In this document: positions 1,101-61,079 of the stretch, piece after piece
Layout: each line of letters starts with the position of its first letter
Numbering within the stretch: position 1 is the stretch's first letter
Source: Escherichia phage vB_EcoM-UFV09
Reading direction: 5' to 3' (one strand)
Sequence record: MZ291552.2
Length of the DNA: 64,000 nucleotides
Program-made: the position numbers and the translations under genes
The notes under the pieces: model-generated
The model's database searches: none
What the model was told of the DNA's origin: nothing
Seen by the model: only the letters and a program-made list of their open reading frames with translations

Positions 1101-1114
1101 TCTTTGACGATTTA

Positions 1115-1132
1115 AGGGACCTTCGGGTCCCT
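1115..1132 (+). terminator. Stem-loop (UUCG tetraloop) plus T-rich tract downstream of gene 23
   Basis: agggacc-ttcg-ggtccct followed by ttagttgttttta. Confidence 0.5.
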
Positions 1133-1148
1133 TTAGTTGTTTTTATGG

Positions 1149-1156
1149 TATAAATA
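1149..1156 (+). promoter_or_regulatory. T4-type late promoter for gene 24
   Basis: Exact TATAAATA about 28 nt upstream of the gene 24 ATG. Confidence 0.6.
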
Positions 1157-1183
1157 AATCATATAAACTGAAAGGAAAGCGCA

Positions 1184-5508: not shown

Positions 5509-6189
5509 TTATTTTAATGTTACGAAAGAAGAATTGCGTGTTTCACGAATTAAAACTGATCCGTCGCGATTAATGTAATAAATTAAGCTAAACAAAGTTT
5601 GGTGTGCTGACGCGTGTTCAAAACTAGTTGGATGAGATTTCCAATCAGGAGTTTCAGCGATCCATTGATAAATCCACCAAGGAACCGTACAGAATCCTGG
5701 ATTTTTCCCCAATAATTGAAGATTCGGGCTAAAGTTTTCCGGAAGAGTAAATACAGACGGCTTTTCAGATTCAATAATCTCAGCTACAGCTTGTTCAAAC
5801 TTTTCTTCAACAAAAGGAGTGTCTTCAATCAAAACATCAGTATTTTCAGGAATTTTATCCGTTTCTACAACTTCAATTTTAATATCAGATTTAACTGGAG
5901 AATCAATCAGAAGCGCTGCTTCTGGATTAACTTCTTCATCGTCATATTTTAATCCCTCTGCAGCATCAGCAGCATCAATTAAGTCTTTAATAGATAACCC
6001 ATCAGTCTCTGGCATAGGTTCACTAGCGAGCTTCTGGAGGGCTTCTTCAATATCAACAACGATATTATCAAAAGATTTATTCTTTTTGACCTTTATACCA
6101 AACTGTTCAGCATATTCAGCTAATTTAGCTTTAGCTTCTTTATTATCATCAAGAGCCTTCAGCTCTGCAATATAATCTTTATCTATCAT
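5509..6189 (-). CDS. inh: Inh, inhibitor of prohead protease
   Basis: 226-aa acidic ORF immediately upstream of hoc, as in T4. Confidence 0.8.
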   Translation of the reverse strand: MIDKDYIAELKALDDNKEAKAKLAEYAEQFGIKVKKNKSFDNIVVDIEEALQKLASEPMPETDGLSIKDLIDAADAAEGLKYDDEEVNPEAALLIDSPVKSDIKIEVVETDKIPENTDVLIEDTPFVEEKFEQAVAEIIESEKPSVFTLPENFSPNLQLLGKNPGFCTVPWWIYQWIAETPDWKSHPTSFEHASAHQTLFSLIYYINRDGSVLIRETRNSSFVTLK

Positions 6190-6202
6190 AATATTTCCTC
6201 AG

Positions 6203-6210
6203 TATAAATA
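6203..6210 (+). promoter_or_regulatory. T4-type late promoter upstream of uvsW
   Basis: Exact TATAAATA about 30 nt upstream of the uvsW ATG. Confidence 0.5.
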
Positions 6211-6239
6211 TAGATATATTTATTACATGGTATTTAGAC

Positions 6240-14318: not shown

Positions 14319-15413
14319 ATGGCAATTGTTAAAGAAATAACTGCTGATTTAATTAAAAAGTCCGGTGAAACAATTTCAGCCGGACAGAGTACTAAATCAG
14401 AAGTAGGAACTAAAACATACACAGCCCAGTTTCCAACTGGGCGTGCTAGTGGTAATGACACTACAGGGGACTTCCAGGTAACAGATCTATATAAGAATGG
14501 ATTATTATTTACTGCATACAATATGTCATCTAGGGATTCTGGAAGTCTTAGAACGATGAGATCTAACTACTCTTCTTCATCTTCGAGTATTTTACGTACA
14601 GCCAGAAACACTATCAGTAATACAGTATCAAAACTATCAAATGGACTAATATCAGATAATAATTCAGGAACAATAAGTAAAGTTCCTGTTGCAAATATTC
14701 TTTTACCTAGATCTAAATCTGACGTCGATACGTCATCACATAGATTTAATGATGTTCAAGATAGTCTTATTACAAAAGGCGGAGGTACTGCTACTGGTGT
14801 GCTAAGCAATATGGCTTCAACCGCAGTATTTGGAGCGTTGGAAAGTATAACACAAGGTATAATGGCTGATAATAATGAACAGATCTATACAACAGCCAGA
14901 AGCATGTACGGCGGTGCTGAAAATAGAACAAAAGTGTTCACTTGGGATTTGACTCCACGCTCAACAGAAGATTTAATGGCTATTATTAATATCTATCAGT
15001 ATTTTAACTATTTTTCTTACGGTGAAACTGGTAAATCTCAATATGCTGCTGAAATAAAAGGATATTTAGATGAGTGGTATCGTTCTACATTTATTGAACC
15101 ATTAACGCCAGAAGACGCGATTAAAAACAAGACGTTATTTGAAAAAATGACATCGAGTTTAACGAACGTTCTTGTAGTTTCAAACCCGACAATTTGGATG
15201 GTGAAAAACTTTGGTGCAACTTCTAAATTTGATGGAAAGACTGAAGTATTCGGTCCATGCCAAATACAGAGTATTAGATTTGATAAAACACCAAATGGTA
15301 ACTTTAATGGATTAGCTATTGCTCCTAACCTTCCAAGTTCTTTTACACTCGAGATTACTATGAGAGAGATTATTACGTTAAACCGTGCTTCTTTATATAC
15401 GGGGACTTTCTAA
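14319..15413 (+). CDS. 48: Baseplate tail-tube junction protein gp48
   Basis: 364-aa ORF at the T4 gene 48 position. Confidence 0.95.
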   Translation: MAIVKEITADLIKKSGETISAGQSTKSEVGTKTYTAQFPTGRASGNDTTGDFQVTDLYKNGLLFTAYNMSSRDSGSLRTMRSNYSSSSSSILRTARNTISNTVSKLSNGLISDNNSGTISKVPVANILLPRSKSDVDTSSHRFNDVQDSLITKGGGTATGVLSNMASTAVFGALESITQGIMADNNEQIYTTARSMYGGAENRTKVFTWDLTPRSTEDLMAIINIYQYFNYFSYGETGKSQYAAEIKGYLDEWYRSTFIEPLTPEDAIKNKTLFEKMTSSLTNVLVVSNPTIWMVKNFGATSKFDGKTEVFGPCQIQSIRFDKTPNGNFNGLAIAPNLPSSFTLEITMREIITLNRASLYTGTF

Positions 15414-16378
15414 TGTATTCTTTAGAGGAATTTAATAATCAAGCAATAAACGCAGACTTCCAACGTAATAATATGTTCAGCTGTGTTTTTGCTACAACTC
15501 CATCAACTAAAAGCTCATCGTTAATAAGCTCAATTAGTAACTTTGCTTATAATAACTTGGGTCTAAATTCAGATTGGTTGGGATTAACTCAAGGTGATAT
15601 TAATCAGGGAATTACCACGCTAATTACTGCTGGCACACAAAAACTAATAAGAAAATCGGGAGTCAGTAAATATCTTATTGGCGCTATGAGTCAGCGTACT
15701 GTTCAGAGTTTATTAGGCTCATTTACAGTTGGTACATATTTAATTGACTTCTTTAACATGGCATATAACTCATCTGGATTGATGATATACTCTGTAAAAA
15801 TGCCAGAGAATAGATTATCCTATGAAACTGACTGGAACTATAATTCTCCTAATATTCGTATAACTGGAAGAGAATTAGACCCTTTGGTTATTTCATTCAG
15901 AATGGATTCAGAAGCTTGTAACTATCGTGCAATGCAAGACTGGGTTAACGCTGTTCAAGACCCAGTAACTGGATTGCGTGCTTTGCCGCAAGATGTCGAG
16001 GCAGATATTCAGGTTAATCTTCATTCTCGCAATGGATTACCTCATACTGCGGTGATGTTCACTGGATGCATTCCAATATCAGTGAGCGCTCCTGAGTTAT
16101 CATATGATGGAGATAACCAAATAACTACATTTGACGTTACTTTTGCGTATAGAGTGATGCAGGCTGGAGCAGTTGATAGACAAGCTGCCCTTGAATGGCT
16201 TGAATCTGCTACTATAAATGGTATTCAAAGCGTTCTCGGAAATAGTGGAGGTGTTACTGGACTATCTAATTCGCTTTCACGACTTAGTAGATTAGGGGGA
16301 ACTGCAGGAAGCATTTCAAATATTAATACTATGACAGGAATTGTCAATTCGCAAAGTAAAATATTAGGAGCAATATAA
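15413..16378 (+). CDS. 54: Baseplate tail-tube initiator gp54
   Basis: 321-aa ORF at the T4 gene 54 position. Confidence 0.95.
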   Translation: MYSLEEFNNQAINADFQRNNMFSCVFATTPSTKSSSLISSISNFAYNNLGLNSDWLGLTQGDINQGITTLITAGTQKLIRKSGVSKYLIGAMSQRTVQSLLGSFTVGTYLIDFFNMAYNSSGLMIYSVKMPENRLSYETDWNYNSPNIRITGRELDPLVISFRMDSEACNYRAMQDWVNAVQDPVTGLRALPQDVEADIQVNLHSRNGLPHTAVMFTGCIPISVSAPELSYDGDNQITTFDVTFAYRVMQAGAVDRQAALEWLESATINGIQSVLGNSGGVTGLSNSLSRLSRLGGTAGSISNINTMTGIVNSQSKILGAI

Positions 16379-16758: not shown

Positions 16759-18815
16759 TACATTTTGAACTTTTTAGACATTCCGTTGATGTTAACCAAA
16801 GAAGCTAAGATTTGAGAAACTTCGTTTTCCTCTTCTTTTGATTCTTCTACAAGGAATTGATTAAATCCAGCCATTGGACGAACTTCACCAGTTTCCATCA
16901 GATGGTCGCCATCATATACTGATTCTTCTAATTGTTCAGAAGGAGGAACGATTGTACCTTCGATTAGATACTTGTTATAAGCAGTTTCTTTCATCATGTA
17001 CGTACTTACTTTATTAATCTTCAGTAAAATTCCACGCGGCAAAATAACTTCAGCTTCGGATGGAAATCCTGATAAATGACCTGGAACGATAACTTTAACT
17101 CGTTCAGCTCCTTTAATTACCATACCTACATTAGTTTCAGCGTCTTCATTCGCATATGTAGAATGACTACCCATATGCATTAAATCTTCAGCATCAACTG
17201 AACCTTCTCCTTCACCAGAAAATACTGCTCCGGAATCATCTAAGGCCATATAATTTTTACCATATTCACCGAAGATATTTGGCTTGAGTGAAGTAGATAC
17301 AAAGTTCTTGAAATAGAACATTTTATTTTCTATATTATGACGTAAAGTTTTAAAGGTAACTTCTTGCCCACGATAAAGAGTAGTTCCTGGAGGAAGAACT
17401 GAACCTTTAGAAAATGCAGAATCCAGCGTCTCAATATGTTTAATAGCTCGTTCCATATATTCTTCACGGGTAGAATCAGGTTTACCTAGAAGGAACGAGT
17501 TCATTTCAACATATGAATCTGCGCAATAATCTTCAATTACATCAGACTCAGCCTGAGTTAATCCTTTTGGAGTTACTTCAGTGCTTGCATATTCATATGC
17601 CTGAGCAGCAGATTCATCAATTAATTTATAAATTCCATTCATTACAAATTGAATAATAGCTGTCTTTTCATCTGGTGTAGCTTTAGAACCTTTAACTAAA
17701 TCATTGACAATTTTCTTAATAACATCAAAGCTATTAGAAATATTAATGTCAGCAAGATCGCTTAAAATTTTATCAGTTTTATAATCAAAGAATTCTTTAT
17801 TCTTTAAATATTCTTGAGAACCTTGATATGTTATATCGCTCTGCAGCTTGATAGATGGATCGCGTAAACGTGCATGGGCCAATGCAATATGATTTCGGAA
17901 GCTTTCGAGTTCATAATCACTAGATTTAAAACGAGAAGCACTTCTCATACCACCGATAGCTCCTTTGCTAAAGTTTGAACCAACCTGAATAACGCCAGAG
18001 TTCATTGGTCCTTCTGCTTTATATACCGGAACTTTAGATTCAAACTCTTGATATTTCTTAGCAGCGAAGCTATCACCCTGAAGTGAAGCATCAACAGTAG
18101 AATATTGAGCTTGTGCTGCTAATCGACGACTAATTTTAGTTTTCTGAATAACAGCTTGATCCGTGCGCTTATCATTTTCTAAAGCAATAGAAGCAGCAAC
18201 AGCAACAGCTTTAGGAACAGCATTACCTGTTTTAACGTCTACATAAACATCACCAACCTTTGATTCAACTTTTGTGAATAACTCGGTTGAAATAGGAGGT
18301 ACACCTGGAATGTCTTCTAAATTGGCATTTTTACGGTAAACCATAATATATGCGTACTTTTTATCATAATCCCAGATTTCCTTTAAAAGAACATATCGAC
18401 CTGCTCCTTTAGTACGTACTAAACGGTCAGCAATAACTTGCATTTGCCGAGCAGCGCCATTTGTTTTACTTTTTAGTACGCGGAATAAGCATGCATCAAT
18501 TTTATACTGTTTCATTGTTTGAAGAGCAGTATCAAAAACAGCATTAATGACGCCAATTGGATTTCCACCCAAGTTTTTAAGCTTAACTAATGATAGTTTC
18601 TCATTAACGCCTATCATTACGATATGCATCATTTTGTCGCCTGGCTTAACGTTTTTATTCGTATCACCGCCAGAGGTGTATGTACAAAATCTAAATCCAG
18701 GAAGCACGCTTTCTTCACCTGCTTGAATAGCAAAAATTTGAGGTATTTTATGCTTAGGATTTAAGTTAACAACCGGCGCCGAAGCGCCGTCAAATAATTC
18801 TGTAATAAGTTCCAT
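16758..18815 (-). CDS. Alt-like ADP-ribosyltransferase paralogue (685 aa)
   Basis: Paralogous to the adjacent 697-aa ORF (shared MELITELFD N-terminus); YRGQ, FVSTS and EAEVILPRG motifs resemble an ART R-S-E triad. Confidence 0.8.
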   Translation of the reverse strand: MELITELFDGASAPVVNLNPKHKIPQIFAIQAGEESVLPGFRFCTYTSGGDTNKNVKPGDKMMHIVMIGVNEKLSLVKLKNLGGNPIGVINAVFDTALQTMKQYKIDACLFRVLKSKTNGAARQMQVIADRLVRTKGAGRYVLLKEIWDYDKKYAYIMVYRKNANLEDIPGVPPISTELFTKVESKVGDVYVDVKTGNAVPKAVAVAASIALENDKRTDQAVIQKTKISRRLAAQAQYSTVDASLQGDSFAAKKYQEFESKVPVYKAEGPMNSGVIQVGSNFSKGAIGGMRSASRFKSSDYELESFRNHIALAHARLRDPSIKLQSDITYQGSQEYLKNKEFFDYKTDKILSDLADINISNSFDVIKKIVNDLVKGSKATPDEKTAIIQFVMNGIYKLIDESAAQAYEYASTEVTPKGLTQAESDVIEDYCADSYVEMNSFLLGKPDSTREEYMERAIKHIETLDSAFSKGSVLPPGTTLYRGQEVTFKTLRHNIENKMFYFKNFVSTSLKPNIFGEYGKNYMALDDSGAVFSGEGEGSVDAEDLMHMGSHSTYANEDAETNVGMVIKGAERVKVIVPGHLSGFPSEAEVILPRGILLKINKVSTYMMKETAYNKYLIEGTIVPPSEQLEESVYDGDHLMETGEVRPMAGFNQFLVEESKEEENEVSQILASLVNINGMSKKFKM

Positions 18816-18818
18816 GAT

Positions 18819-20912
18819 TTATCCTTGAACGAACTTGTAAGGCATGTTTGTAATATCTATGCAAGACGCAATAATTCCAAGAGATGATTCTACTTTCTGT
18901 TTAATATTTGATGAAACAAATGATGCAAAGTCAACTCTGTCTTCTATTTCAATATCACCTGTCATTGCAACCAATTCACCAGTTTCCATTAAATGGTCTC
19001 CATCATAGATTACCGATTCGGTGAGCTCTTCCGTGGTCATAACTTCAGCTTGAATGAGTTTTGTATTATTAGATGTTGTTCCGTCATTATTAGAAGCATC
19101 GATTATTTTATTAACTTTGACCATCAATCCACGCGGTAGAATAACTTCAGCTTCTGTTGCTATTCCGAGACTTCCTGGATATACAACATTAACTTTATGA
19201 GCTCCATCAATTGCCCATCCTATTTGAACTTTAACATATTCAGGATTTTCTTTATACGCTCTTATTTCGTTTGGATTAATAGTTATTCCTTCTTCATTTT
19301 TATCAACTGTTAATTCATTGCGAGCTTCTGGTTCTAAAAGACCAATACCAGCATGTGTGATTCCAAAACGTCCAAAAATGATAGGAGTTAAAGAAGTAGA
19401 TACAAAATTTCTGAAGTAGAACACTTTATTTTTAACTAACGCTTCATATATAGGAGCAGTCATACTTTGAGCACGATAAACTGTAATGCCTTCTGGTATA
19501 CGGTCACCATTTTCAAAAGCTGAATCTAAGTTATTTATAGCAGATTCAATTTCTTTTTCACTCATTACATCGTATCGTTCTGGATTGTAACGACCTAAAA
19601 GAAGATTATTGATGTCAGTATATCCTGAACCGCAATATTCTCTAATGCCACGCTTTTGTGATGGAGTATATTTAGAACCATCGCGGGCAATAGTAATATC
19701 AATCATTGGACCAGCACCAATTCCAGAAAAACTGTAAATCATTCGTTTGAGGAATTTAGTTTTTGCTGCGTTCCAGGAATTTTTAGTTATTTCTTCCCAG
19801 ACTTCATCTGGTTGTCCTTTACGATTTTTATTATGATTAGCAAGCCATTTATCTTTATAATCTTCAAAGAATTGATTTACAGCTGCTGCGTATTTCTCTA
19901 AACATTTTATTGAAGTAGTTGGTTCATTTTTAATTGCATTAAAAATTACTTCTTTAATTTTTTCTGAAACTTCACCGACTTGACTCATTGGAAAGAATTT
20001 ATAATCATAGTGAAGTTCATCTGCCGTTCCTTCAGCAATAATTTTTGCTGCCTTTGTTTTAGAAGCTAATGAATTAATTCCAATTTTCATTTCTTCTGCT
20101 TCGGGAATTAAAGGTGCAGTAGCTGGTTTATTAAAATTAGCTGCTGTAGATTCATACTTCTGGAATAATTCACTTTCAAATCTAGAAGATTCCAATGACT
20201 GACTTTGTGCAATTGCTCTACGGGAAATTTTAACTTTAACGATTACAGCTTGGTCAGAACGTTTATCATTTTCTTGCGCAATAGATGCTGCAATTGCTTC
20301 ATTTTTAGTTACTTGAGCTCCAGTATCTTTATTGATATAAACATCACCGACCTTCGATTCAACTTTAGTAAAGAGTTCAGTGCTAATTTCTGGAACTCCT
20401 GGAATGTCTTCTAATGATACATTTTTGCGATGTATAAGAATATATGCATACTTTTTATCGTAATCCCAGAGTTCCTTAAGAAGGACGTATCTGCCACCTG
20501 AACGACTACGGATAAGTCTATCAGCAATAACTTGAATTTGTCGAGCTTGGCCAGCAGTTTTAGACTTAAGAATACGAAGCATGCAGGCATCAATTTTATA
20601 TTGACGCATCGTTTGCATTGCAACAGTAAAAACTGAATTGATATAATTAATTGGGCTTGGACCAAGACCTTTTAATTTAGCAATTGAGCCTTTAGCAGTT
20701 AATGTAAAAGGAACAATATGCATCATTTTATCGCCCATCTTTAAATCGCGATTAGTATCACCTCCAGATGTATAGGTACATAAACGAAAGCCTGGTTGTT
20801 CAATTGCATCATCAACATGAACTGAAAAAATTTGTGGTATTTTCTTCTTTGGATTTAAGTTTGTAATCGGAAGAGTAGTATCTTCGTCAAATAATTCTGT
20901 AATAAGTTCCAT
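18819..20912 (-). CDS. alt: Alt ADP-ribosyltransferase (virion-packaged, modifies host RNA polymerase)
   Basis: 697-aa ORF with YRAQ, FVSTS, EAEVILPRG motifs; late promoter upstream; T4 alt position between 54 and 30. Confidence 0.8.
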   Translation of the reverse strand: MELITELFDEDTTLPITNLNPKKKIPQIFSVHVDDAIEQPGFRLCTYTSGGDTNRDLKMGDKMMHIVPFTLTAKGSIAKLKGLGPSPINYINSVFTVAMQTMRQYKIDACMLRILKSKTAGQARQIQVIADRLIRSRSGGRYVLLKELWDYDKKYAYILIHRKNVSLEDIPGVPEISTELFTKVESKVGDVYINKDTGAQVTKNEAIAASIAQENDKRSDQAVIVKVKISRRAIAQSQSLESSRFESELFQKYESTAANFNKPATAPLIPEAEEMKIGINSLASKTKAAKIIAEGTADELHYDYKFFPMSQVGEVSEKIKEVIFNAIKNEPTTSIKCLEKYAAAVNQFFEDYKDKWLANHNKNRKGQPDEVWEEITKNSWNAAKTKFLKRMIYSFSGIGAGPMIDITIARDGSKYTPSQKRGIREYCGSGYTDINNLLLGRYNPERYDVMSEKEIESAINNLDSAFENGDRIPEGITVYRAQSMTAPIYEALVKNKVFYFRNFVSTSLTPIIFGRFGITHAGIGLLEPEARNELTVDKNEEGITINPNEIRAYKENPEYVKVQIGWAIDGAHKVNVVYPGSLGIATEAEVILPRGLMVKVNKIIDASNNDGTTSNNTKLIQAEVMTTEELTESVIYDGDHLMETGELVAMTGDIEIEDRVDFASFVSSNIKQKVESSLGIIASCIDITNMPYKFVQG

Positions 20913-20935
20913 GTTATCCTCTCTAGTGTTTATTC

Positions 20936-20943
20936 TATTTATA
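20936..20943 (-). promoter_or_regulatory. Late promoter for alt
   Basis: Minus strand TATAAATA about 21 nt upstream of the alt ATG, followed by GAGAGGA Shine-Dalgarno. Confidence 0.55.
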
Positions 20944-20968
20944 AAATTAAAGGCCCGAAGGCCTTTAA

Positions 20969-21154
20969 TTAATAGAGAGCTAAAAGAGTACGATATACTT
21001 CAAACTTTGGACCTTTTTCATATGGATCAAATCTTTCCGTGAATTCATCATATGCTAGTTTATCTGGGAATTCAAGAATAACCTGCGATACCGCAGTGGA
21101 AACATCTCCACCTTCTTTTTGAGCCACGACAATTGTTTCTAAGTAAGCTTTCAT
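20969..21154 (-). CDS. Hypothetical protein (61 aa) between gene 30 and alt
   Basis: ATG overlaps the gene 30 stop (ATGA coupling). Confidence 0.55.
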   Translation of the reverse strand: MKAYLETIVVAQKEGGDVSTAVSQVILEFPDKLAYDEFTERFDPYEKGPKFEVYRTLLALY

Positions 21155-25665: not shown

Positions 25666-25775
25666 TTTATTCTCCTTTGTTTGTGTAAGATAATACTATC
25701 ACAAAGGAACCATACTGTAAACAACTTTATGCAATCGTTGGAAAATAAAAAAGGACTCCCGAAGGAGTCCTCAAC

Positions 25776-25952
25776 TTATGCTTTCTGCTTACCAAAACGA
25801 GAAGCATCATCTCGAAGAACCGCACGTGCTCGGCGCATGATCTTCTCAACAGTTTGATTGATACGAGAGTTCGACCCACGCTTGTAGCCAGCGCGTTTAG
25901 AATCACCAACTTTCTTTTCAACTGCTTTCTTTGCTTTAACTTGTTTTGCCAT
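25776..25952 (-). CDS. 30.9: 30.9, small highly basic protein (about 58 aa)
   Basis: Internal ATG (MAKQVKAKK...) chosen; track ORF extends to 25994. Confidence 0.55.
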   Translation of the reverse strand: MAKQVKAKKAVEKKVGDSKRAGYKRGSNSRINQTVEKIMRRARAVLRDDASRFGKQKA

Positions 25953-29413: not shown

Positions 29414-30634
<1,221 letters not shown>

Positions 30635-30638
<4 letters not shown>

Positions 30639-30865
30639 TTATTTTTCTCAACTAATGATTGAATATAATCATGCAGATCTTTAGACGCCTTAGCCCAATT
30701 ATTTTGATATTCATTTTTAAGATTAGCACGTGATTGAGCTAATAAAACATCATTAGTTGGAGGTAAAGATTCTAACCGCTGAATCTGGCGTCCGTAAATC
30801 ATTGCAGCCATCTCGGATTCATAAATCAATCCTTTGAGATGTTCAAATTGATGCCATGAAATCAT
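30635..30865 (-). CDS. Hypothetical protein (76 aa)
   Basis: ORF in the pseT-alc interval. Confidence 0.6.
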
Positions 30866-31161
30866 TTACATTTATCCTCTTTTAACTCTTGACGATAATA
30901 ACATATCATAGTTTTTTGATCATGTACATATCGTTTTACATCATTAAGCCAAATACGAAATTCCTGGGAATCTTCAAATGGCATACCGACCCAAGCTTTA
31001 CCATCAATAACTTTAACTTGCCAAGATAGTTTAGCTTCGTCATATGACTTTATTTGTACAGGCCAATTAGGATGAACTGTTTCTTTCTTTACTTCTAGAG
31101 GCTTTGTCGAACAACCAACTAGAAGACCAATAGATAATATTACTGCTGATAGTTTAATCAT
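30862..31161 (-). CDS. pseT.2: Outer-membrane spanin lipoprotein (o-spanin)
   Basis: Signal peptide with lipobox (LLVGC) then Cys-containing periplasmic domain; overlaps the upstream i-spanin by 4 nt. Confidence 0.75.
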   Translation of the reverse strand: MIKLSAVILSIGLLVGCSTKPLEVKKETVHPNWPVQIKSYDEAKLSWQVKVIDGKAWVGMPFEDSQEFRIWLNDVKRYVHDQKTMICYYRQELKEDKCK

Positions 31162-31511
31162 TTAGAAAGGTCCTGGATGTCTTCTGCGAACTTGTTGAAG
31201 GAGTTGTTGATTTGTTTTTCAACCAATCCTGGCTTACGAGCCACCACATCCGCCTTCTTTGCGTCTTTGCGCAGCTTTTCATTTTCACGCTCAATAGCAG
31301 CAATTGCCTCACGATTTTTATTATTCATCGCGTCAATATAATTATACTGAATTCGCAAATTATTTAATGCTAAGGCGTTTTCATTGGCCGTTTTTGTAAT
31401 TTCAGTAACTGATGTTTCTAATCTTTCTACCTTATTTTTTAAAATAATAGATGTTCCGCCTAATGCTATTACAATTAATAGCAAACCTGCTGTAGTATTA
31501 CTTAATTGCAT
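31158..31511 (-). CDS. pseT.3: Inner-membrane spanin (i-spanin)
   Basis: N-terminal transmembrane helix followed by coiled-coil-like sequence; adjacent to the o-spanin. Confidence 0.75.
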   Translation of the reverse strand: MQLSNTTAGLLLIVIALGGTSIILKNKVERLETSVTEITKTANENALALNNLRIQYNYIDAMNNKNREAIAAIERENEKLRKDAKKADVVARKPGLVEKQINNSFNKFAEDIQDLSK

Positions 31512-32005
31512 AAAGTTTTAATAACCTCTACAATATCATCTTGAGAAAGACCGTTAATTAAAATATGATGTTCAGCCGGAGATTTAGAAATTTTAAAGCA
31601 TGCCTCAACATCTTCTGCCATATCCGATGCACTACGATTTGGATTACTAATTCCAAGACGATGCTTTCCAGTCAAAGGATTAACGATGATATAGCATTTA
31701 CAGCTATTGATATGAACATTGGGCTGAGTCTGATTAATGAACACTTCGCACTCATACTTAGCGAGTTGATTTTCTAAAAAGACTTTCATCTCTTCAACCG
31801 CATCAGGAAGCATATCGCGGGCTTGCTCAAGACGACGATTTCGATATTCTTTAATGGTAGTTTTCCGCTTGACTTGCTTAGCTAAATCTTTCTTAAGATC
31901 GGTGATATATCCAACTCGACGATTTCCTTTGAATACAGAAATCCCATCTGTAGTATCACCGTATGCTTCAACGACCATCTCAGTAGTAATAAGCTGCAAA
32001 TCCAT
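31502..32005 (-). CDS. alc: Alc, terminator of host transcription on dC-containing DNA
   Basis: 167-aa ORF at the T4 alc position. Confidence 0.8.
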   Translation of the reverse strand: MDLQLITTEMVVEAYGDTTDGISVFKGNRRVGYITDLKKDLAKQVKRKTTIKEYRNRRLEQARDMLPDAVEEMKVFLENQLAKYECEVFINQTQPNVHINSCKCYIIVNPLTGKHRLGISNPNRSASDMAEDVEACFKISKSPAEHHILINGLSQDDIVEVIKTLCN

Positions 32006-32012
32006 TATAAAG

Positions 32013-32066
32013 TCCTCATGTTATGTCAGTAAGATTATTATAACACAACACGAGGGACTTGTAAAC
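32013..32066 (-). promoter_or_regulatory. Early promoter plus leader cassette, copy 2 (drives alc)
   Basis: Identical over 54 bp to 16705..16758. Confidence 0.6.
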
Positions 32067-32069
32067 AGC

Positions 32070-33657
<1,588 letters not shown>

Positions 33658-33663
33658 AATAAA

Positions 33664-33680
33664 ATGGGCCTTGCGGCCCA
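33664..33680 (-). terminator. Hairpin between nrdB and denA
   Basis: gggccgcaaggccc on minus strand (GGGCC / GGCCC stem). Confidence 0.4.
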
Positions 33681-33684
33681 CTCC

Positions 33685-34863
33685 TTAAAAATATTTTTTA
33701 AAACTCATCATAACTTTATCATCAACATCATTATCAATCTGTGCAACAAGATAAGATGACAGTTCTACTTCTTGCGGCGCGGATTGAACATTATCAGAAT
33801 TAAGGTATTCACGAATCCAAGGATATGGATGTTTAACCGGAGCATCGGTAATTGGGCATGGAAGACCGCACTGTTTCATACGAGATACAGTTAAGTAATC
33901 AATAAAACTCCACATGCTATTTGTATTTAATCCAGGAACATCGCCATCTTTAAATAAATGAACTGCCCAATCTTTTTCTTGGCGGTTAACTTCCATGAAA
34001 ATATCAACTGCTTCTTGTTCACACTCTTGAGCAATTTTAACCCATTCATCGCCATCAGTGCCAAGTTGAAGTTGACGAATAATATATTGGGTGCCTTTAA
34101 GGTGAAGCTGCTCATCACGTGCAATGAACTTCATAATCTTGGCATTACCTTCCATGATTTCCATGTTTTTATGGAAGTTAAAGGTACATGCGAAAGATAC
34201 ATAAAAACGAATAGCTTCCAATGCGTTGATTACATGAAGGCAAAGATAAAGAGATTTCATTAGCTCACGCTTCCAATATGTCTCATGCTCAATAGCATCT
34301 TCAATAACGTCTTCGTCTGCATTAATTTCTTTTTGGTATTCGATATCAGCTTTAGCATTTTCCCAATAACGAGTTTTAGTCAGAACATCATCATAATAGC
34401 GTCCAATAGATTCGGCTCGTTTCATGATTGCTTCATCTAATACAATCTCATCAAATACCTTTGACGGATCAGTATAAAGATTTCGCATGATATGTGTATA
34501 TGAACGACTGTGAATAGTTTCACTAAAAGTCCATGTAGCAACCCATGTATCAAGGCTAGGGTCTGAAATTAATGACATAAGTACAGCAGATGGCGCACGA
34601 CCCTGAATGCTATCCAAAAGTGATTGATACTTCAAGTTATTAGTAAAAATATTCTGCTGATACTGAGGAAGCTTATTAAACTGTGCAGCATCCATCATTA
34701 AGTTTACTTCTTCGGGACGCCAGAAAAATGATAAGGACTTCTCTGTAAGTTCTTCAAATACTCGATGCCGTTGAATATCATAACGCGCAATACCAAGACC
34801 TGAACCAAAAAACATAGGTTCTTTTAAAACATCAACTGGATTTGTATTAAAAACTGTGCTCAT
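33685..34863 (-). CDS. nrdB: Ribonucleotide reductase small subunit, uninterrupted (no intron)
   Basis: Continuous 392-aa ORF with R2-type residues. Confidence 0.93.
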   Translation of the reverse strand: MSTVFNTNPVDVLKEPMFFGSGLGIARYDIQRHRVFEELTEKSLSFFWRPEEVNLMMDAAQFNKLPQYQQNIFTNNLKYQSLLDSIQGRAPSAVLMSLISDPSLDTWVATWTFSETIHSRSYTHIMRNLYTDPSKVFDEIVLDEAIMKRAESIGRYYDDVLTKTRYWENAKADIEYQKEINADEDVIEDAIEHETYWKRELMKSLYLCLHVINALEAIRFYVSFACTFNFHKNMEIMEGNAKIMKFIARDEQLHLKGTQYIIRQLQLGTDGDEWVKIAQECEQEAVDIFMEVNRQEKDWAVHLFKDGDVPGLNTNSMWSFIDYLTVSRMKQCGLPCPITDAPVKHPYPWIREYLNSDNVQSAPQEVELSSYLVAQIDNDVDDKVMMSFKKYF

Positions 34864-34914
34864 AAATTTTCCACTTAGTTAATAGTTGGTGACTCGTCCG
34901 TGAGTCAAATTATA

Positions 34915-37179
34915 TCATAATTTACAGGATGAACAATCTTCAGCTTTAGGAGTTTCTATTTCATAATCATCAGTACCAGAACCATCACGGGTATTATGAT
35001 AATAGAAATTTTTAATGCCATAATACCATCCGTATAGCATGTCATCAATCATTATTGACATTGGAACCTTTCCTTTTGGAAAAATCTGTGGGTCATAATA
35101 TGTATTCGCTGAAGCTGATTGACATACCCATTTCAGCATAATAGCTACCTGCGTAAGATAAGGTTTATTACCTTTCTTAGCTAATTTCCATGTATAATCA
35201 TAGAGGTCTATGTTATGCTCAATATTGGGCACGACTTGATTAAAGGAACCCTCTTTTGATTCTTTAACAGAGACTGGTCCACGTGGAGGCTCGATACCGT
35301 TTGTACTGTTAGAAACTTGGGAAGATGACTCACATGGCATAAGTGCTGATAATGTGCTATTACGGATGCCAAAGAGCTTAAGGTCTTCCCGCAGCGACGA
35401 CCAGTCACAAACGTATTTTGGAGCTGCGATTTGGTCAATCTTTTTATTGTACCAGTCGATAGGTAATTCGCCTCGAGACCAACGAGTGTCTGAATAATAT
35501 TCACAAGGTCCTTTTTCTTTGGCGAGCTTAATGGATGCTTTAATGAGTCCATACTGTAATCTCTCAAATAGTTCATGTGTTAAATCGTTAGCATCTTCAT
35601 AAGAAGCAAAGTTACTTGCCAGCCAAGCTGCATAGTTAGTAACACCTACACCGAGGTTACGACGCTTTTTAGCTTTTTCTGCTTCAGGAACTGGATATCC
35701 TTGGTAATCCAAAAGATTATCAAGAGCACGAACTTGGACTTCTGCCAATTCATTAATTTTATCTTGGTCTTGCCAATCGAAGTTATCCAGCACAAATGCA
35801 GATAACGTGCACAATCCAATTTCAGCATCAGGACTATTCACATCATTTGTTGGAATAGCAATTTCACAACACAAGTTACTCTGACGAATAGGTGCCTTTT
35901 CACGAATAAACGGAGTATAGTTATTCGTATTATCAATGAACTGTACATAAATCCTTGCTGTTCCTGAACGTTCAGTCATGAGCAATTCAAATAGTTCACG
36001 GGCTTTAATACGCTTTTTACGAATATTAGGGTCTTTTTCTGCTGCTTCGTATAATTCACGGAAACGGTCTTGGTCTTTAAAATAAGAATAATAAAGCTCT
36101 CCACCCATTTCATGCGGACTGAACAAAGTAATGTAATCGTTCTTTCCAAAACGTTCCATCATCAAATCATTCAGCTGGACGCCATAATCCATATGACGGA
36201 TACGGTTTTCTTCTACACCTTTGTTATTTTTCAAAACGAGAAGATTTTCAACTTCCAAATGCCAAATAGGATAATAAGCAGTAGCAGCGCCGCCCCGAAT
36301 TCCACCTTGTGAGCATGATTTAACAGCAGTCTGAAAATGTTTCCAAAAAGGAATAACACCAGTATGGCGTACTTCACCCATGCCAATCTTAGAACCTTCG
36401 GCACGAATCATACCAACGTTAATACCAATTCCAGCACGTTTGGAGATATATTCAACAATTGAAGCGGAAGCCTTATTGATAGACTTTAATGAATCACCTG
36501 CCTCAATAACAACACATGAACTAAACTGTCGAGTCGGAGTACGACAACCAGCCATAATAGGAGTTGGTAATGAAATCTGTCGAGTAGATACTGCTTCATA
36601 AAAATGAATAACATGTTTTAATCTATCAACAGGTTCATCTTGATGCAATGCCATTCCAATAGTCATAAATGCAAACTGAGGAGTTTCATAAATTTGACCA
36701 GTGGTTTTATCTTTAACTAGATATTTTTCTTTTAATTGCATCGCCCCGGAATAAGTAAATTCCATATCCCGCTCGTGCTTAATTTTTGATTCTAAAAATG
36801 TAATTTCTTCTGCTGAATATTTTGACAATAATTCAGGGTCATATTTACCTGCATTTACACAATAAGAAATATGGTCAATAAATGAACGCGGTTCATACTG
36901 CCCATAAACATGCTTACGAAGAGCGAACATTAGACAACGTGCAGCTACATATTGATAATCAGGCTCTTCAACCGAAATAGAATTCGCAGCGGCCTTAATG
37001 ACAATAGTCTGAATATCATCAGTTGTCATTCCATCACGGAGATAAGATTTAATATTTTCATATAATTCATAAGGATCGACTGATGTTCCTTCAGCTGCCC
37101 AAGATAAAACTTTAATAATTTTTTGTGGGTCAAAGCTCTGAGAAACACCACTACTTTTGATAACATTAATTAATTGCAT
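34915..37179 (-). CDS. nrdA: Ribonucleotide reductase large subunit
   Basis: 754-aa ORF with class Ia RNR motifs. Confidence 0.95.
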   Translation of the reverse strand: MQLINVIKSSGVSQSFDPQKIIKVLSWAAEGTSVDPYELYENIKSYLRDGMTTDDIQTIVIKAAANSISVEEPDYQYVAARCLMFALRKHVYGQYEPRSFIDHISYCVNAGKYDPELLSKYSAEEITFLESKIKHERDMEFTYSGAMQLKEKYLVKDKTTGQIYETPQFAFMTIGMALHQDEPVDRLKHVIHFYEAVSTRQISLPTPIMAGCRTPTRQFSSCVVIEAGDSLKSINKASASIVEYISKRAGIGINVGMIRAEGSKIGMGEVRHTGVIPFWKHFQTAVKSCSQGGIRGGAATAYYPIWHLEVENLLVLKNNKGVEENRIRHMDYGVQLNDLMMERFGKNDYITLFSPHEMGGELYYSYFKDQDRFRELYEAAEKDPNIRKKRIKARELFELLMTERSGTARIYVQFIDNTNNYTPFIREKAPIRQSNLCCEIAIPTNDVNSPDAEIGLCTLSAFVLDNFDWQDQDKINELAEVQVRALDNLLDYQGYPVPEAEKAKKRRNLGVGVTNYAAWLASNFASYEDANDLTHELFERLQYGLIKASIKLAKEKGPCEYYSDTRWSRGELPIDWYNKKIDQIAAPKYVCDWSSLREDLKLFGIRNSTLSALMPCESSSQVSNSTNGIEPPRGPVSVKESKEGSFNQVVPNIEHNIDLYDYTWKLAKKGNKPYLTQVAIMLKWVCQSASANTYYDPQIFPKGKVPMSIMIDDMLYGWYYGIKNFYYHNTRDGSGTDDYEIETPKAEDCSSCKL

Positions 37180-37496
37180 AAGTCCTCAACTTGAAAATCG
37201 TCTTTAAACAATCGGTTAACTATATGAGCTATTATATCACCATGACACGGCTTTGGTTTACATGTGCATCCTAGCCTCATTCCACGTAAAGGCTCTAAAT
37301 GTGCTTTAGTTATTTCTCCGGATTTAATTCGACGTATAAAATCTTTTTTGAATAATTCAATGGCAGCCTCCCGGCTGCCAGCATCTTTACCGACGTAATT
37401 TCCCCAAAATGTACCACGGTGAATATTAACATCAAAGTCGGATTTATATTTATTCACTACCCGGCATAGACGGCCCGCGCGGTTGTAGGTGTTCAT
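37170..37496 (-). CDS. nrdA.1: Hypothetical protein nrdA.1 (CxC...CHGD motif)
   Basis: 108-aa ORF; start overlaps the nrdA.2 3' end by 47 nt. Confidence 0.6.
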
Positions 37497-37713
37497 ATTG
37501 TTCTTCCGTTAAAACAGTAATATCGTAGTAACAGTCAGAAGAAGTTTTAACTGTGGAAATTTTATTATCAAAATACTCACGAGTCATTTTATGAGTATAA
37601 TATTTTTTGCCATAAATGATAATAGGCTGATTTGGTCCTGGAACTTCTAACTCACTTGGATTAGGAAGTGTAAAAAGAACGGCACCAGAAGTATCTTTAA
37701 ATCGTAAAATCAT
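37450..37713 (-). CDS. nrdA.2: Hypothetical protein nrdA.2
   Basis: Internal ATG chosen; track ORF extends to 37725. Confidence 0.55.
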
Positions 37714-37736
37714 ATATCCTCTCAATTAAATTAAAA

Positions 37737-38597
37737 TTATACCGCCATCTTTCCTTTAATTGACGGATGAGATACATAGTTATTAAGAACAAAATTATGA
37801 GGCTTTGCAAATTGACTCAACCAAAATACCTGCGATTCTGTGTCCCATTCATCAAATTCATCTGGAAATTTTAATTGTAATTCGCATAAATCCATAGGTT
37901 CACGGCGTAAAATTTCTTTACATTGTTCTACGTGATTCATATAGATATGAGTATTACCACCAGAAAATATCAAATCTCCAGGAATAAGATTACACATTTT
38001 AGCTACAATATGAACTAACGTAGCATATGATGCAATATTAAATGGAAGACCGAGGAAAACATCTACCGAACGTTGATACCACTGCAAATCCAAATAGCCA
38101 TTACGCACATTAAACTGATAGAACATATGACAAGGCGGTAATGCCATATATTTAAGTTCAGCTGGATTCCATGCAGAAACAATTTGACGCCTATCATTTG
38201 GCAGTTTTTTAATACGATCAATAACTTCTATAATTTGGTCTACACCGCCAAAATCACGCCACTGTTTTCCATAAATTGGACCAAGTTCACCACTATGGTA
38301 TCCTAAATCTTTTGCTTGATTTTCGTAATTTTCATCCCAGACTGTTTTGCCTTGAATTAATGAATCATGTTGAATTAATCGTAAATCATTGACATTTGTG
38401 CTTCCTGATAAAAACCATATTAGCTCAGCAATGCATGCATTCCAGGCGAGCTTTTTAGTTGTTACTGCAGGAAAGCCTTTAGTTAAATCCCAACGCAATT
38501 TAGTACCGAACAGAGCAATTGTTCCTGTGCCCGTTCGGTCATCGGTTTCATAGCCATTTTCAAAAATGTCTTTAATTAAATCTTGGTATTGTTTCAT
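37737..38597 (-). CDS. td: Thymidylate synthase, uninterrupted (no intron)
   Basis: Continuous 286-aa ORF with the TS active-site region (ALPPCH). Confidence 0.95.
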   Translation of the reverse strand: MKQYQDLIKDIFENGYETDDRTGTGTIALFGTKLRWDLTKGFPAVTTKKLAWNACIAELIWFLSGSTNVNDLRLIQHDSLIQGKTVWDENYENQAKDLGYHSGELGPIYGKQWRDFGGVDQIIEVIDRIKKLPNDRRQIVSAWNPAELKYMALPPCHMFYQFNVRNGYLDLQWYQRSVDVFLGLPFNIASYATLVHIVAKMCNLIPGDLIFSGGNTHIYMNHVEQCKEILRREPMDLCELQLKFPDEFDEWDTESQVFWLSQFAKPHNFVLNNYVSHPSIKGKMAV

Positions 38598-38642
38598 TTA
38601 GTACCTTATATAAATTATAATACATTTTATGAAGCTAAATAA

Positions 38643-38990
38643 TCAATACGGTTTAGCATCAAATTTTCTCTCAATTTCAGGCGTGAAATATAATTCTTTA
38701 CCGCGTTTGGAAAAGCGACCAATAATATGATAATTATTCTCATCAAACGTGATATTACCAATATCCATAGCTTTCAACCAAATATCGATATTTCTATCCA
38801 GCTTTATGTCAAAATTCCAATATGGAGAACTATTACCGAAAATACTGCAAGCGGATTCAGTGAAACAACTGCTATAAATCTTGTCTTTAGGAACTACTAA
38901 TTGATAGACACCTTTAATAAACTGAGGACCCTGCCACTTTGGCTGTTTCTCGTCTTTTTCTAATAGAATAGGGTAATAATTAAAATTCAT
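38643..38990 (-). CDS. Hypothetical protein (115 aa) between frd and td
   Basis: ORF filling a 413-bp gap between frd stop and td start; no recognisable motif. Confidence 0.6.
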   Translation of the reverse strand: MNFNYYPILLEKDEKQPKWQGPQFIKGVYQLVVPKDKIYSSCFTESACSIFGNSSPYWNFDIKLDRNIDIWLKAMDIGNITFDENNYHIIGRFSKRGKELYFTPEIERKFDAKPY

Positions 38991-39009
38991 ATTTCCGCCA
39001 CGCGTTATT

Positions 39010-39835
<826 letters not shown>

Positions 39836-39839
<4 letters not shown>

Positions 39840-40195
39840 ATTACCTCCCATTGAAAAGAGTCATGAGCATATCCGCTAGCGTCAATCATTTTAACTAAAG
39901 TTACCATTCCTCTGTTAACTGCTTGTGCGATTTCATCAAAAACTTCATCACTATCATCGTAAAGATCATTAAAAAGTTCTAACACGTTCTTCTGAACTTT
40001 TAATTTACGGCCGACAATTTCCCCTACAGTAAATTCGTTTCCGCCAAATCCAGCGTAAAATGTAATTACACCCATTAACTGGCTTTCACGGGAATCTATG
40101 TCGTGTGATAAATTAATAAAAGCCGTCCCAGGCGCGGTTTTAAGTTGGCAACGAATTTTTACTTGGGTAATTCCAGTTATATGAATGTTAGACAT
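39836..40195 (-). CDS. frd.2: Hypothetical protein frd.2
   Basis: 119-aa ORF. Confidence 0.65.
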
Positions 40196-40508: not shown

Positions 40509-40769
40509 TTATTTTTGAATTTTATCTAGCCACTTACCAAGCTTAATCATTTCTTTAGTAGCCTTTTCCATACTTCTGAACTTAACCAATAGAGGATAGG
40601 TATCGACACTCATAACTAAATTGGTTGCAAGACTGTGTTCACCCACAAGCCATAACGAATACGTTTGAATATCGAGTCCGTAATTTCTGTCTTTATGGAC
40701 CCGTACACCCATCACTTCAAATTTCTCACTAGCTTTTTCTACCGCATCCAGGAAATCATCTTTAGTCAT
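40509..40769 (-). CDS. Hypothetical protein (about 86 aa)
   Basis: Start set at internal ATG with AAGG Shine-Dalgarno; track ORF 40509..40811. Confidence 0.55.
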   Translation of the reverse strand: MTKDDFLDAVEKASEKFEVMGVRVHKDRNYGLDIQTYSLWLVGEHSLATNLVMSVDTYPLLVKFRSMEKATKEMIKLGKWLDKIQK

Positions 40770-40770
40770 A

Positions 40771-41157
40771 TTAGGCCTTAAAAGTTTTTCGCAAAAGTTC
40801 AATGATTTCATCTACATTGTTTTCGTCAACAATACAGTGAATTTTTGTTACGCCAGAAACTATACCTTCATTAGCGGATTGAGGCTTTTCTAAAGTTACC
40901 TCAGTAAAGTATTTGAATTCTTCAGGGTAAATCTCAAAATACGTCTCAAGTGGGCCACCCGCCATGTATTCAGTGCCATCTTCCATAGTTACACGTACCA
41001 CACATTCACCAGTACAATCATCACTTTCCATTTCATCTACAACAAAACTAGGTCCGTGCTTCTCTATTAAATTTAGCATCATTACATTGCAACGGCACTC
41101 GTTAGCAAAGTCATTTTTAAATAAAGGGTTAATGATATAAGTTTTTCCAACTTCCAT
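40771..41157 (-). CDS. Hypothetical acidic protein (128 aa)
   Basis: ORF in the frd-32 interval. Confidence 0.65.
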   Translation of the reverse strand: MEVGKTYIINPLFKNDFANECRCNVMMLNLIEKHGPSFVVDEMESDDCTGECVVRVTMEDGTEYMAGGPLETYFEIYPEEFKYFTEVTLEKPQSANEGIVSGVTKIHCIVDENNVDEIIELLRKTFKA

Positions 41158-42487: not shown

Positions 42488-42586
42488 TTTTATTTCCTTT
42501 TTAATTTAATTAACAGTTGGTGCTATGACGATGTATGACCTCATAGCTGGTCAGTGAGATAATTATAATCTATTTATAATAAGCAA
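42488..42586 (-). promoter_or_regulatory. Gene 32 leader: late promoter (42571..42578) plus A/U-rich translational operator
   Basis: Minus strand TATAAATA, then leader ending AUUAAAUUAAAAAGGAAAUAAAA-AUG. Confidence 0.55.
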
Positions 42587-58517: not shown

Positions 58518-59842
58518 TTGATTTCCTCTAAATCTTTAGTGTATTCTGTAACTACATCAGTAGTTTTCCAATATTCGTTTTCTTCTTTTTTAGCTTTAGC
58601 TTCTTCAGCAAGTTTCTTTGCTTCGTCGGAAGTCATATGAAAAATATTCATTCCGACTAGTTTATCAACATAAGAAGAATACATCTCAATTTTAGAAAGT
58701 TCTTCAGTCAGTTCTTTGCGAGTTTTACCCTGTACAACGATTTCACCTGAAATTACTTTCTTAATGAAATGTGCCTTGGCAAAAGCTAAACGAAAAGCTG
58801 ACTCAGTTTCTTTAATTTTATTATCAATTCGTTTTTGGACATAAGTTTTACGAACTTCAACGAAGTCTTTGATTAAATCAACTACGTTATCGTAAACTTG
58901 TAGTTTTCCTTTCTCATTAATAACCGTAATATTCTGAGAACGACGCTCAATCAACCCGAAGTCTTTCATAATTTTTGCATGGCGTTCTTCTTCATTATCG
59001 CTCAAAGAATATTCTTTACGGAATTTAACTTTAAAGCCAAACCCGTGCTCACCACAAGCATCATCCCATGTAATGAAGCCTTTATCTTCAAGCGGGTCTA
59101 AGATTTTACTCACATAAGTTTCACGATCATACTTATACGGAATCTCAGTGATATGCATTTGAGTTCGTGAAGTAAACTTATATGTTCCACGAATTTCATA
59201 TTGACCGTCAATTTCAACGACTTCACCGCGAAATTCTGGGAATTCTACCTTTGGTTTAGTTACTTTCTTTCCTTGAAGAGCTTGCAATACAGCTTTCTTG
59301 ACAGAAGAAACACTATGAGGAAGAATGTAAGTTGCATAACCAGTTGCAATACCGGAAACACCATTAAGAAGAACAGTAGGAATAATAGGCAAATAGAAAG
59401 CAGGCGGAATGTGTTCTTTATCTTGATGTACCGGAGCATATTCAGTATCTTTATATACGCTATAGAAATTTTTACTTACACGAGCAAAAATATAACGACT
59501 TGCCGCTGCTTTTTGAACGGTACGAGAACCAAAGTTTCCTTGACCATCTAACAAAGGAAAGTTATTATTCCAAGTATTAGCCATCAAAGCCCCCGCGTCT
59601 TGCGCAGAGTTTTCACCATGATGATATCCAAGGTCCGCTACACCACCTGCAATAGAAGCGAGTTTGTGAAACTTATCTTTATTTCCTCGTGCCAAATCAA
59701 GAGCTCGAGCAATAACAAATCGTTGGACTGGCTTAAATCCATCAATCATATTTGGAATAGCACGATTTTCAACCGTGTACATAGCATAAGCCAATGCTTC
59801 ATTATCAATGATACTTTTTAAATCGCGATTATTCAGTTGCAT
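58514..59842 (-). CDS. 52: DNA topoisomerase II medium subunit gp52
   Basis: 442-aa ORF at the T4 gene 52 position. Confidence 0.93.
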   Translation of the reverse strand: MQLNNRDLKSIIDNEALAYAMYTVENRAIPNMIDGFKPVQRFVIARALDLARGNKDKFHKLASIAGGVADLGYHHGENSAQDAGALMANTWNNNFPLLDGQGNFGSRTVQKAAASRYIFARVSKNFYSVYKDTEYAPVHQDKEHIPPAFYLPIIPTVLLNGVSGIATGYATYILPHSVSSVKKAVLQALQGKKVTKPKVEFPEFRGEVVEIDGQYEIRGTYKFTSRTQMHITEIPYKYDRETYVSKILDPLEDKGFITWDDACGEHGFGFKVKFRKEYSLSDNEEERHAKIMKDFGLIERRSQNITVINEKGKLQVYDNVVDLIKDFVEVRKTYVQKRIDNKIKETESAFRLAFAKAHFIKKVISGEIVVQGKTRKELTEELSKIEMYSSYVDKLVGMNIFHMTSDEAKKLAEEAKAKKEENEYWKTTDVVTEYTKDLEEIK

Positions 59843-59846
59843 AAAT

Positions 59847-59987
59847 TTACCATACTAGTGAATGTAGTGCCATAATAACATCAGAAATGAAAAGCACGAC
59901 TTGAATTAATCCGAACATTACTCCATAATATAGTGCTACTAATAAAGTAGCAAGGGCTAATGAATAGCCCAAGATTTTCTTAATCAT
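59847..59987 (-). CDS. Small hydrophobic membrane protein (46 aa)
   Basis: Hand-translated; no clear Shine-Dalgarno; ATG lies 3 nt upstream of the ac stop. Confidence 0.4.
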   Translation of the reverse strand: MIKKILGYSLALATLLVALYYGVMFGLIQVVLFISDVIMALHSLVW

Positions 59988-60138
59988 TAGTAGATAACAA
60001 CACAAATGTTAAATATGCACACATACCCTGAGCTAAAGCTTGCGAAAACACACTGCTGGCATCAATACAGATAGTTAAAACACATGCTACTATCCAACAA
60101 ATAAATGAAATAACTCCTAATAATTTTGCAATATTCAT
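59980..60138 (-). CDS. ac: Small membrane protein (52 aa), probable Ac (acridine sensitivity)
   Basis: Hand-translated; GAGGAAAAT Shine-Dalgarno; size and position match what I recall of T4 ac. Confidence 0.5.
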   Translation of the reverse strand: MNIAKLLGVISFICWIVACVLTICIDASSVFSQALAQGMCAYLTFVLLSTND

Positions 60139-60148
60139 ATTTTCCTCA

Positions 60149-60226
60149 CTAGCGTCCGAAGACGCCTTTAGTTTTAAGATTATTACGATAGAACTGCATC
60201 ACATGTTCGTTATGGAAATTACTCAT
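60149..60226 (-). CDS. stp: Stp peptide (25 codons), activator of the host PrrC anticodon nuclease
   Basis: Hand-translated [25 protein letters not shown]-stop; ATG overlaps the ndd stop (TAATG). Confidence 0.65.
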
Positions 60227-60684: not shown

Positions 60685-60744
60685 ATTAATTTCCTCTAAA
60701 TTATTTTCTACTCCAAGGCCGCATGAATACATACGGCCGATAAA

Positions 60745-60960: not shown

Positions 60961-60968
60961 AATTCACC

Positions 60969-61079
60969 TCAAGGAGTATAAAATCCGAATGCAGTTGTTG
61001 ACCATCCCATCCAATATGGGAAATTTGCGCCAATGTAAAACATAAGAATATAAAACCAACCGCTCAGCAAATTCATCAT
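60969..61079 (-). CDS. Small hydrophobic membrane protein (36 aa)
   Basis: Hand-translated; ATG overlaps the upstream gene stop (ATGA). Confidence 0.4.
   Translation of the reverse strand: MMNLLSGWFYILMFYIGANFPYWMGWSTTAFGFYTP

Follow-up and report, generated by a model that had tools for sequence, protein, structure and literature searches.

Phage T4 carries group I introns in its thymidylate synthase gene (td) and in the gene for the small subunit of ribonucleotide reductase (nrdB), together with free-standing homing endonuclease genes at further positions, and the corresponding part of Escherichia phage vB_EcoM-UFV09 has none of these elements. Here we analyse a 64,000-nucleotide (nt) stretch of this genome (MZ291552.2), which at its full length is called the window. 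It extends from within gene 23 to the final base of rIIB, by convention the right end of T4-type genomes. Compared with the complete T4 genome (NC_000866), which served as the reference, six sites in this interval are empty: those of the td intron with I-TevI, the nrdB intron with I-TevIII, mobE, segD, segE and segG. In megablast searches, the Escherichia phages vB_EcoM-UFV05, UFV06, UFV10 and UFV11 (Tequatrovirus) are 100% identical to the window over positions 33000-39500 and 59000-64000, and the next-best matches, at 96-97%, are vB_EcoM_11B_SA_NWU, PE37, RB32 and RB33. We regard the window with high confidence as the right-hand 64 kilobases (kb) of an ordinary UFV05-type Tequatrovirus with six empty mobile-element sites. 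The genes and sites concerned are as follows.

33685..34863, minus strand: nrdB, ribonucleotide reductase small subunit, uninterrupted, 392 amino acids (aa), a single open reading frame (ORF) with no internal stop.
34187..34188, minus strand: empty nrdB intron site, occupied in T4 by a 598-nt intron with a truncated I-TevIII.
34738..34742, minus strand: counterpart of the MobE nick position (nrdB nt 122-126), with positions taken from PMC2790892.
34864..34914, minus strand: spacer of 51 base pairs (bp) between nrdA and nrdB, whose T4 counterpart is nrdB.1 plus mobE, about 700 bp.
34915..37179, minus strand: nrdA, 754 aa, 99% identical to T4 NrdA.
37737..38597, minus strand: td, thymidylate synthase, uninterrupted, 286 aa, a single ORF with no internal stop, colinear with the spliced T4 td.
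38048..38049, minus strand: empty td intron site at the exon 1/exon 2 join, reading ...CCTCGGT up to the join and CTTCCATTT after it, occupied in T4 by a 1017-nt intron with I-TevI.
38031..38075, minus strand: 45-bp counterpart of the I-TevI homing site (-27 to +18), placed by sequence comparison with T4 and T2.
1101..1183, no strand: 83-bp spacer between genes 23 and 24, where segD lies in T4.
6190..6239, no strand: 50-bp spacer between inh and uvsW, where segE lies in T4.
42488..42586, no strand: 99-bp spacer between genes 32 and 59, where segG lies in T4.

The continuity of td and nrdB, and the absence from both of the T4 introns, had been proposed in the initial annotation and is borne out at the nucleotide level. 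The insertion sites were placed by explicit joining of the T4 exons followed by comparison with the window, and this alignment of the exon junctions gives exact empty sites at 38048/38049 in td and 34187/34188 in nrdB. In blastn searches against T4, the intron segments of both genes, as well as nrdB.1 plus mobE and segE, are clean gaps relative to the window. The first 549 nt of td are 96% identical to T4 exon 1, and the NrdB of the window is 4 aa longer than that of T4 owing to a variable patch at residues ~165-197. The nrdA-nrdB gap is indeed only 51 bp, T4 mobE is not there, and MobE has no tblastn match in the window.

Both genes also vary in ways of their own. Close relatives carry at least three unrelated alleles of the NrdB hypervariable patch (window 34270-34380, codons ~165-197, 80-190 nt upstream of the intron site), namely a type shared by the window and T2, a type shared by RB32 and Bas43, and the T4 type. 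DNA identity between these types is ~50%, against 95-99% in the rest of the gene. In td, the last ~160 nt (37737-37900) diverge strongly from T4 (an ungapped comparison gives 15-21 identical positions per 50 nt). The td gene as a whole is nearer to that of RB32 (813 of 861 positions identical) than to that of T2 (765 of 861), which, together with its diverged 3' part, is another sign of mosaicism.

The absence of group I intron cores was examined with the Rfam covariance model RF00028. A default Rfam scan at the gathering score gives no match in the window, and it gives none on T4 DNA containing both introns either. As T4's own introns are missed, this negative is uninformative, and it was rejected as evidence of intron absence and replaced by matched permissive scans. 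In a 7.5-kb T4 control, the permissive RF00028 scan recovers the td intron with 40.3 bits (20361-20591 of the control piece) and the nrdB intron with 35.7 bits (15274-15514), both below the gathering score of 50, whereas the matched 7.5-kb segment of the window (32500-40000) gives no RF00028 match up to E=10. A permissive scan of the whole window likewise gives no match, at a reduced sensitivity (in a 42-kb T4 control the td intron was found and the nrdB intron was lost to filters). Outside 32500-40000, the genes of the window are colinear with uninterrupted T4 orthologs. Two other Rfam families recur below threshold in both genomes: Atu_C8 at 25737-25820 on the minus strand (29.1 bits, with 31.4 at the orthologous T4 position) and L20_leader at the nrdB/denA junction (33650-33776, minus strand; 25.8 bits, and 21.9 in T4). 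These are probably chance matches or a conserved local hairpin.

Homing endonucleases were sought at the protein level by several routes. The 15 homing endonucleases of T4 were used as tblastn queries against the window and give a best E-value of 0.023, while DenA, the positive control, gives 1.6e-95. MobB and MobC give weak plus-strand matches at 63316-63890, which lie antisense inside rIIB and were dismissed as noise. Custom profiles were built from nine GIY-YIG and six HNH proteins of T4 and run with filters off against all six frames of the window, where the best match has E=0.056 (Mob profile, in UvsY) and the best with the Seg/I-Tev profile has E=0.48. The UvsY match is noise, as the same profile matches T4 UvsY at E=0.21. 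In T4 the profiles recover all 15 genes, and leave-one-out profiles recover most of them but not I-TevIII, so that the absence of the I-TevIII subtype rests on tblastn and Pfam. At the level of genes, 93 of 101 non-overlapping ORFs of the window are homologous to T4 proteins other than the endonucleases. The remaining eight ORFs, and the ten most diverged, contain no homing-endonuclease domain in Pfam, nor do the first eight in PHROGs. Thus each ORF of the window either is at least 71% identical to a T4 non-endonuclease protein or has been scanned with Pfam or PHROGs and has no homing-endonuclease domain. Within the sensitivity of the whole-window scan, neither a group I intron core nor a homing endonuclease turned up in the covariance and hidden Markov model (HMM) searches.

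The HMM scan for GIY-YIG domains suggested in the initial annotation gives a positive that calls for interpretation, because the Pfam GIY-YIG model matches denA, which is the sole nuclease-domain HMM match in the window.

33247..33681, minus strand: denA (endonuclease II), 144 aa, Pfam GIY-YIG 27.8 bits (cut-off 22.6), 97% identical to T4 DenA.

Endonuclease II degrades cytosine DNA. The protein has one domain, and its gene lies in the same place in T4, T2 and RB32. GIY-YIG homing enzymes have a C-terminal DNA-binding module and are inserted in a presence/absence manner, and neither feature was found for denA; the Seg and Mob sites are short spacers. Given its near-identity to T4 endonuclease II and its fixed position, denA was rejected as a homing endonuclease, and its GIY-YIG match should not be read by annotators as one.

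A second gene calls for attention, as it is absent from T4 and has been annotated in one relative as an endonuclease.

38643..38990, minus strand: 115-aa ORF in the frd-td interval, absent in T4, within 38601-39004, bounded by the 9-bp direct repeat TAAATGAAA.

Two copies of this repeat, 416 bp apart, enclose the ORF; T4 has no such interval, its frd stop codon and td start codon overlapping. The RB32 annotation of the equivalent ORF carries the remark "flanked by 9 bp repeat". The ortholog in Bas43 (TadeuszReichstein, MZ501106) is labelled "putative homing endonuclease", and 15 other named members are labelled "hypothetical protein". T2 and T6 are among the 362 phage records that contain the frd-td segment at full length. 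The possibility that the ORF encodes a cryptic homing endonuclease of a novel type (cf. Hef, phage U5), in which case the window would not be endonuclease-free, draws on the Bas43 label, on the free-standing position between two conserved genes in 362 records but not in T4, and on the direct repeats. It is extremely unlikely in view of what is seen in the family. The ORF matches no Pfam family at E<=1 and belongs to a PHROG family of unknown function. A profile search of 1.8 billion representatives returns no more than 23 relatives, almost all 95-116 aa in length. None of the 24 family members matches a Pfam nuclease family, and the family profile matches no solved structure. The invariant residues are Q16, W19, G27, G91, K95 and G97, with no conserved acidic residue or histidine among them. 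Homologs at 48% and 32% identity lie between the dihydrofolate reductase (DHFR) and thymidylate synthase genes of distant T4-like phages, so that the position is conserved as well. The predicted structure reaches a predicted local distance difference test (pLDDT) score of 90 when built from 24 sequences (61 from 4) and has no clear fold relative; neither a nuclease fold nor conserved catalytic residues were found. A resemblance of "GVYQL...KIY" in the ORF to the GIY-(X9-11)-YIG motif was considered and rejected, given the lack of a Pfam match at E<=1, the poor conservation of the second motif and a predicted fold that is not GIY-YIG.

On this evidence, the 115-aa ORF behaves as a conserved accessory gene lacking in T4, not as a homing endonuclease, and no support was found for the Bas43 label. 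That it is a new small mobility-associated or nuclease-accessory gene (cf. Hef, phage U5), or a partner of DHFR and thymidylate synthase, is a very speculative suggestion. The second of these, the more modest version, concerns the two enzymes whose genes lie on either side of the ORF in diverse T4-like phages. For annotators, the database label on this frd-td ORF should not be taken as evidence of a homing endonuclease.

Beyond td, nrdB and mobE, the initial annotation had pointed to the hoc-uvsW interval as containing only inh. This is confirmed: the interval holds inh (5509..6189) and the 50-bp spacer, with uvsW from 6240, and T4 segE is absent. The segD and segG sites are two further empty positions that had not been listed before. 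That T4 has introns or endonuclease genes at these positions agrees with the T4 annotation and with Table 1 of PMC2988022. At all three sites for which the target gene is known, divergence from T4 is greater on the target-gene flank (identity 89.5% in nrdB versus 98.0% in nrdA, 92.5% in uvsW versus 98.8% in inh, and 93.3% in gene 32 versus 96.5% in gene 59). Such target-side divergence is expected of endonuclease-minus alleles.

The empty state is a presence/absence character, not a chance feature, and is widespread among relatives. The td intron is present in 197 of 638 td-matching phage records, taking at least 80% coverage of the intron-containing T4 query as presence. The nrdB intron is covered to at least 80% in 118 phage records, and the nrdB.1-mobE segment is matched at all in 143, while the td-nrdB region of the window is matched by about 500-1000 records. 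Most relatives are thus empty at these sites, and the condition found here is the normal one. The endonuclease-poor state is usual in T-even phages, and with 15 such genes it is T4 that is exceptional. The empty sites could in principle be secondary losses, ancestral introns and endonucleases having been precisely removed, for example through recombination with a relative that lacked them; PMC2988022 discusses such a cycle of gain, degeneration and loss for homing elements. Bas43, which is 96% identical, has a full nrdB intron at the same site, and the mosaic nrdB, one patch of which occurs in three allelic forms in close relatives, indicates frequent exchange; both would suit such a history. 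Secondary loss is nevertheless considered unlikely: the window contains no endonuclease or intron remnants and most relatives are likewise empty. The data fit "never invaded" and "cleanly lost" alike.

With the six sites empty, td and nrdB would be translated straight from unspliced mRNA, and no homing nuclease would be made from this part of the genome. In crosses of T2 with T4, T2 is the recipient, with marker exclusion as the result (PMC2988022; PMC2790892). By analogy, the td, nrdB, uvsW and gene 32 alleles of the present phage would probably be cut or nicked in a co-infection with T4, and repair templated by T4 DNA would then bring in the T4 elements together with conversion of neighbouring markers. 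At the td site, the CAACG cleavage motif of I-TevI is retained at -27 to -23, at the right distance from the join. I-TevI is generally tolerant of site changes and prefers 5'-CNNNG-3' at 23/25 nt (PMC2988022), which together with the kept motif makes cleavage of the window td site plausible. The I-TevI site differs from that of T2 at 4 positions, and +1 to +20 are identical to T2. At the nrdB site, the intron found in Bas43 shows that this lineage acquires it in nature, and its ends are 99.5% identical to those of the T4 intron.

Several observations weigh against this picture of an element-free genome with intact homing sites. Compared with T4, the I-TevI site carries 7 substitutions (-22, -19, -6, -4, +3, +6 and +18), leaving 38 of 45 positions identical. 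At nrdB nt 122-126, where T2 nrdB is nicked by MobE (PMC2790892), the region reads GAGAAGTCC in the window, GAAAAGCAG in T2 and GAGCGGCAG in T4, so that the window matches neither. Given the reduced sensitivity of the whole-window Rfam scan, the absence of introns outside 32500-40000 rests on colinearity with T4 and not on the covariance model. Finally, the near-identical UFV05 (OP572230.1) encodes at 31564-32280, outside the window, a 238-aa Mob-type HNH endonuclease (E-value 2.6e-35 with the Mob profile; 43% identical to MobB and to MobE). The gene sits between 45.2 and 46 on the other strand, a position at which T4 has no such gene. No further homing-endonuclease-like gene was seen in the first 100 kb of OP572230.1, and because of this one the genome as a whole cannot be called endonuclease-free. 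In the same 100 kb, nrdD is uninterrupted and mobC is absent.

The variant targets raise the alternative that the phage is a poor recipient, its sites being cut poorly by the T4 nucleases and the T4 elements homing inefficiently. The seven substitutions in the I-TevI site are compatible with this, as is the MobE nick region, where 4 of the 9 positions shown differ from the proven T2 substrate. On the other side stand the retained CAACG motif with its spacing, the identity of exon 2 over +1 to +20 with T2, a proven recipient, the described tolerance of I-TevI, and the gain of the nrdB intron by the close relative Bas43. Taken together, these make inefficient homing unlikely, and we continue to favor the phage as a probable recipient at these loci.

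The functional claims of the initial annotation are accordingly narrowed. Its statement that no homing endonuclease gene is present stands for the window and does not extend to the near-identical UFV05 genome. The homing sites it called intact are so with respect to the I-TevI cleavage motif, and judged by sequence they are altered elsewhere in the td site and in the MobE nick region. The designation "recipient, not donor" can be kept as a prediction for the loci described here, whereas the Mob-type gene of UFV05 implies that the phage could act as a donor to T4 at the 45.2-46 locus.

Some other features of the window differ from T4 or UFV05. In hoc (4084-5502, minus strand), codon 64 is an in-frame TAA (5311-5313), where T4 has CAG and UFV05 has CAA; UFV05 has instead a 1-bp indel near 5421 and a fragmented annotation of the gene. 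The hoc of the window is longer than that of T4, apparently by an extra immunoglobulin-like repeat. Gene 34 (proximal long-tail-fibre, plus strand) contains a perfect 99-bp (33-codon) in-frame tandem duplication, 46916-47014/47015-47113, which is present in neither UFV05 nor T4 and may be either genuine or introduced by assembly. On the minus strand, two complete alt-type ADP-ribosyltransferase genes lie in tandem (16761-18818 and 18822-20999), one product being 71% and the other only 41% identical to T4 Alt; where the second would lie, T4 has no more than the short remnants alt.-1 and alt.-2. Six small ORFs on the minus strand have no T4 counterpart (30318-30638, 39594-39851, 39836-40195, 40509-40811, 61638-61910 and 61907-62125). 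Each belongs to a PHROG of unknown function, one is a DUF7247 protein, and none has a nuclease domain.

The observation is correct but ordinary, and the underlying biology is already known. That T-even phages differ in which of the td and nrdB introns and the seg and mob genes they carry was already recognised in the late 1980s, as was the fact that T2 and other element-free phages act as marker-exclusion recipients. The practical worth of the present analysis is a clean map of six empty sites, with little beyond correct annotation. One caution for annotators concerns the introns themselves, as those of T4 go undetected at Rfam's gathering threshold.

Among the systems compared, T4 has the same gene order as the window and 94-99% protein identity for nearly all of its genes, but has six mobile elements in the interval, lacks the 115-aa ORF and several of the small ORFs, and has another type of gp38. 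Bas43 is 96.2% identical over the region and shares the intron-less td, the 51-bp nrdA-nrdB gap and the 115-aa ORF, but its nrdB intron site, empty in the window, holds a 1089-nt intron that contains a 229-aa endonuclease ORF. The RB32/RB33/PE37 group comprises the closest named relatives after the UFV phages (96.4-96.7%; RB32 96.4%). It shares the empty sites and the extra td-frd ORF, but has a different NrdB patch allele, and the td site of RB32 has CAAAG in place of the CAACG of the window. T2 (AP018813) has the layout of the window, with denA, nrdB (1179 bp), a 51-bp gap, nrdA, nrdA.1, nrdA.2, td (861 bp), a 348-bp ORF and frd. It likewise lacks segG and has the same NrdB patch allele, and the gp38 adhesin of the window (Pfam GP38) is of the T2 type. 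T2 is nevertheless only 94.5% identical in DNA over 30014-39848, and differs in the I-TevI site and the MobE nick region as described above. The T2-like lineage proposed in the initial annotation is therefore partly upheld: layout, gp38 and the NrdB patch point to T2, while RB32 and PE37 are nearer in DNA identity over this region (96-97% versus 94.5%) and the genes are mosaic. As RB32 and hundreds of Tequatrovirus records share the empty sites, "T2-like" describes a common condition of these phages and not a specific lineage.

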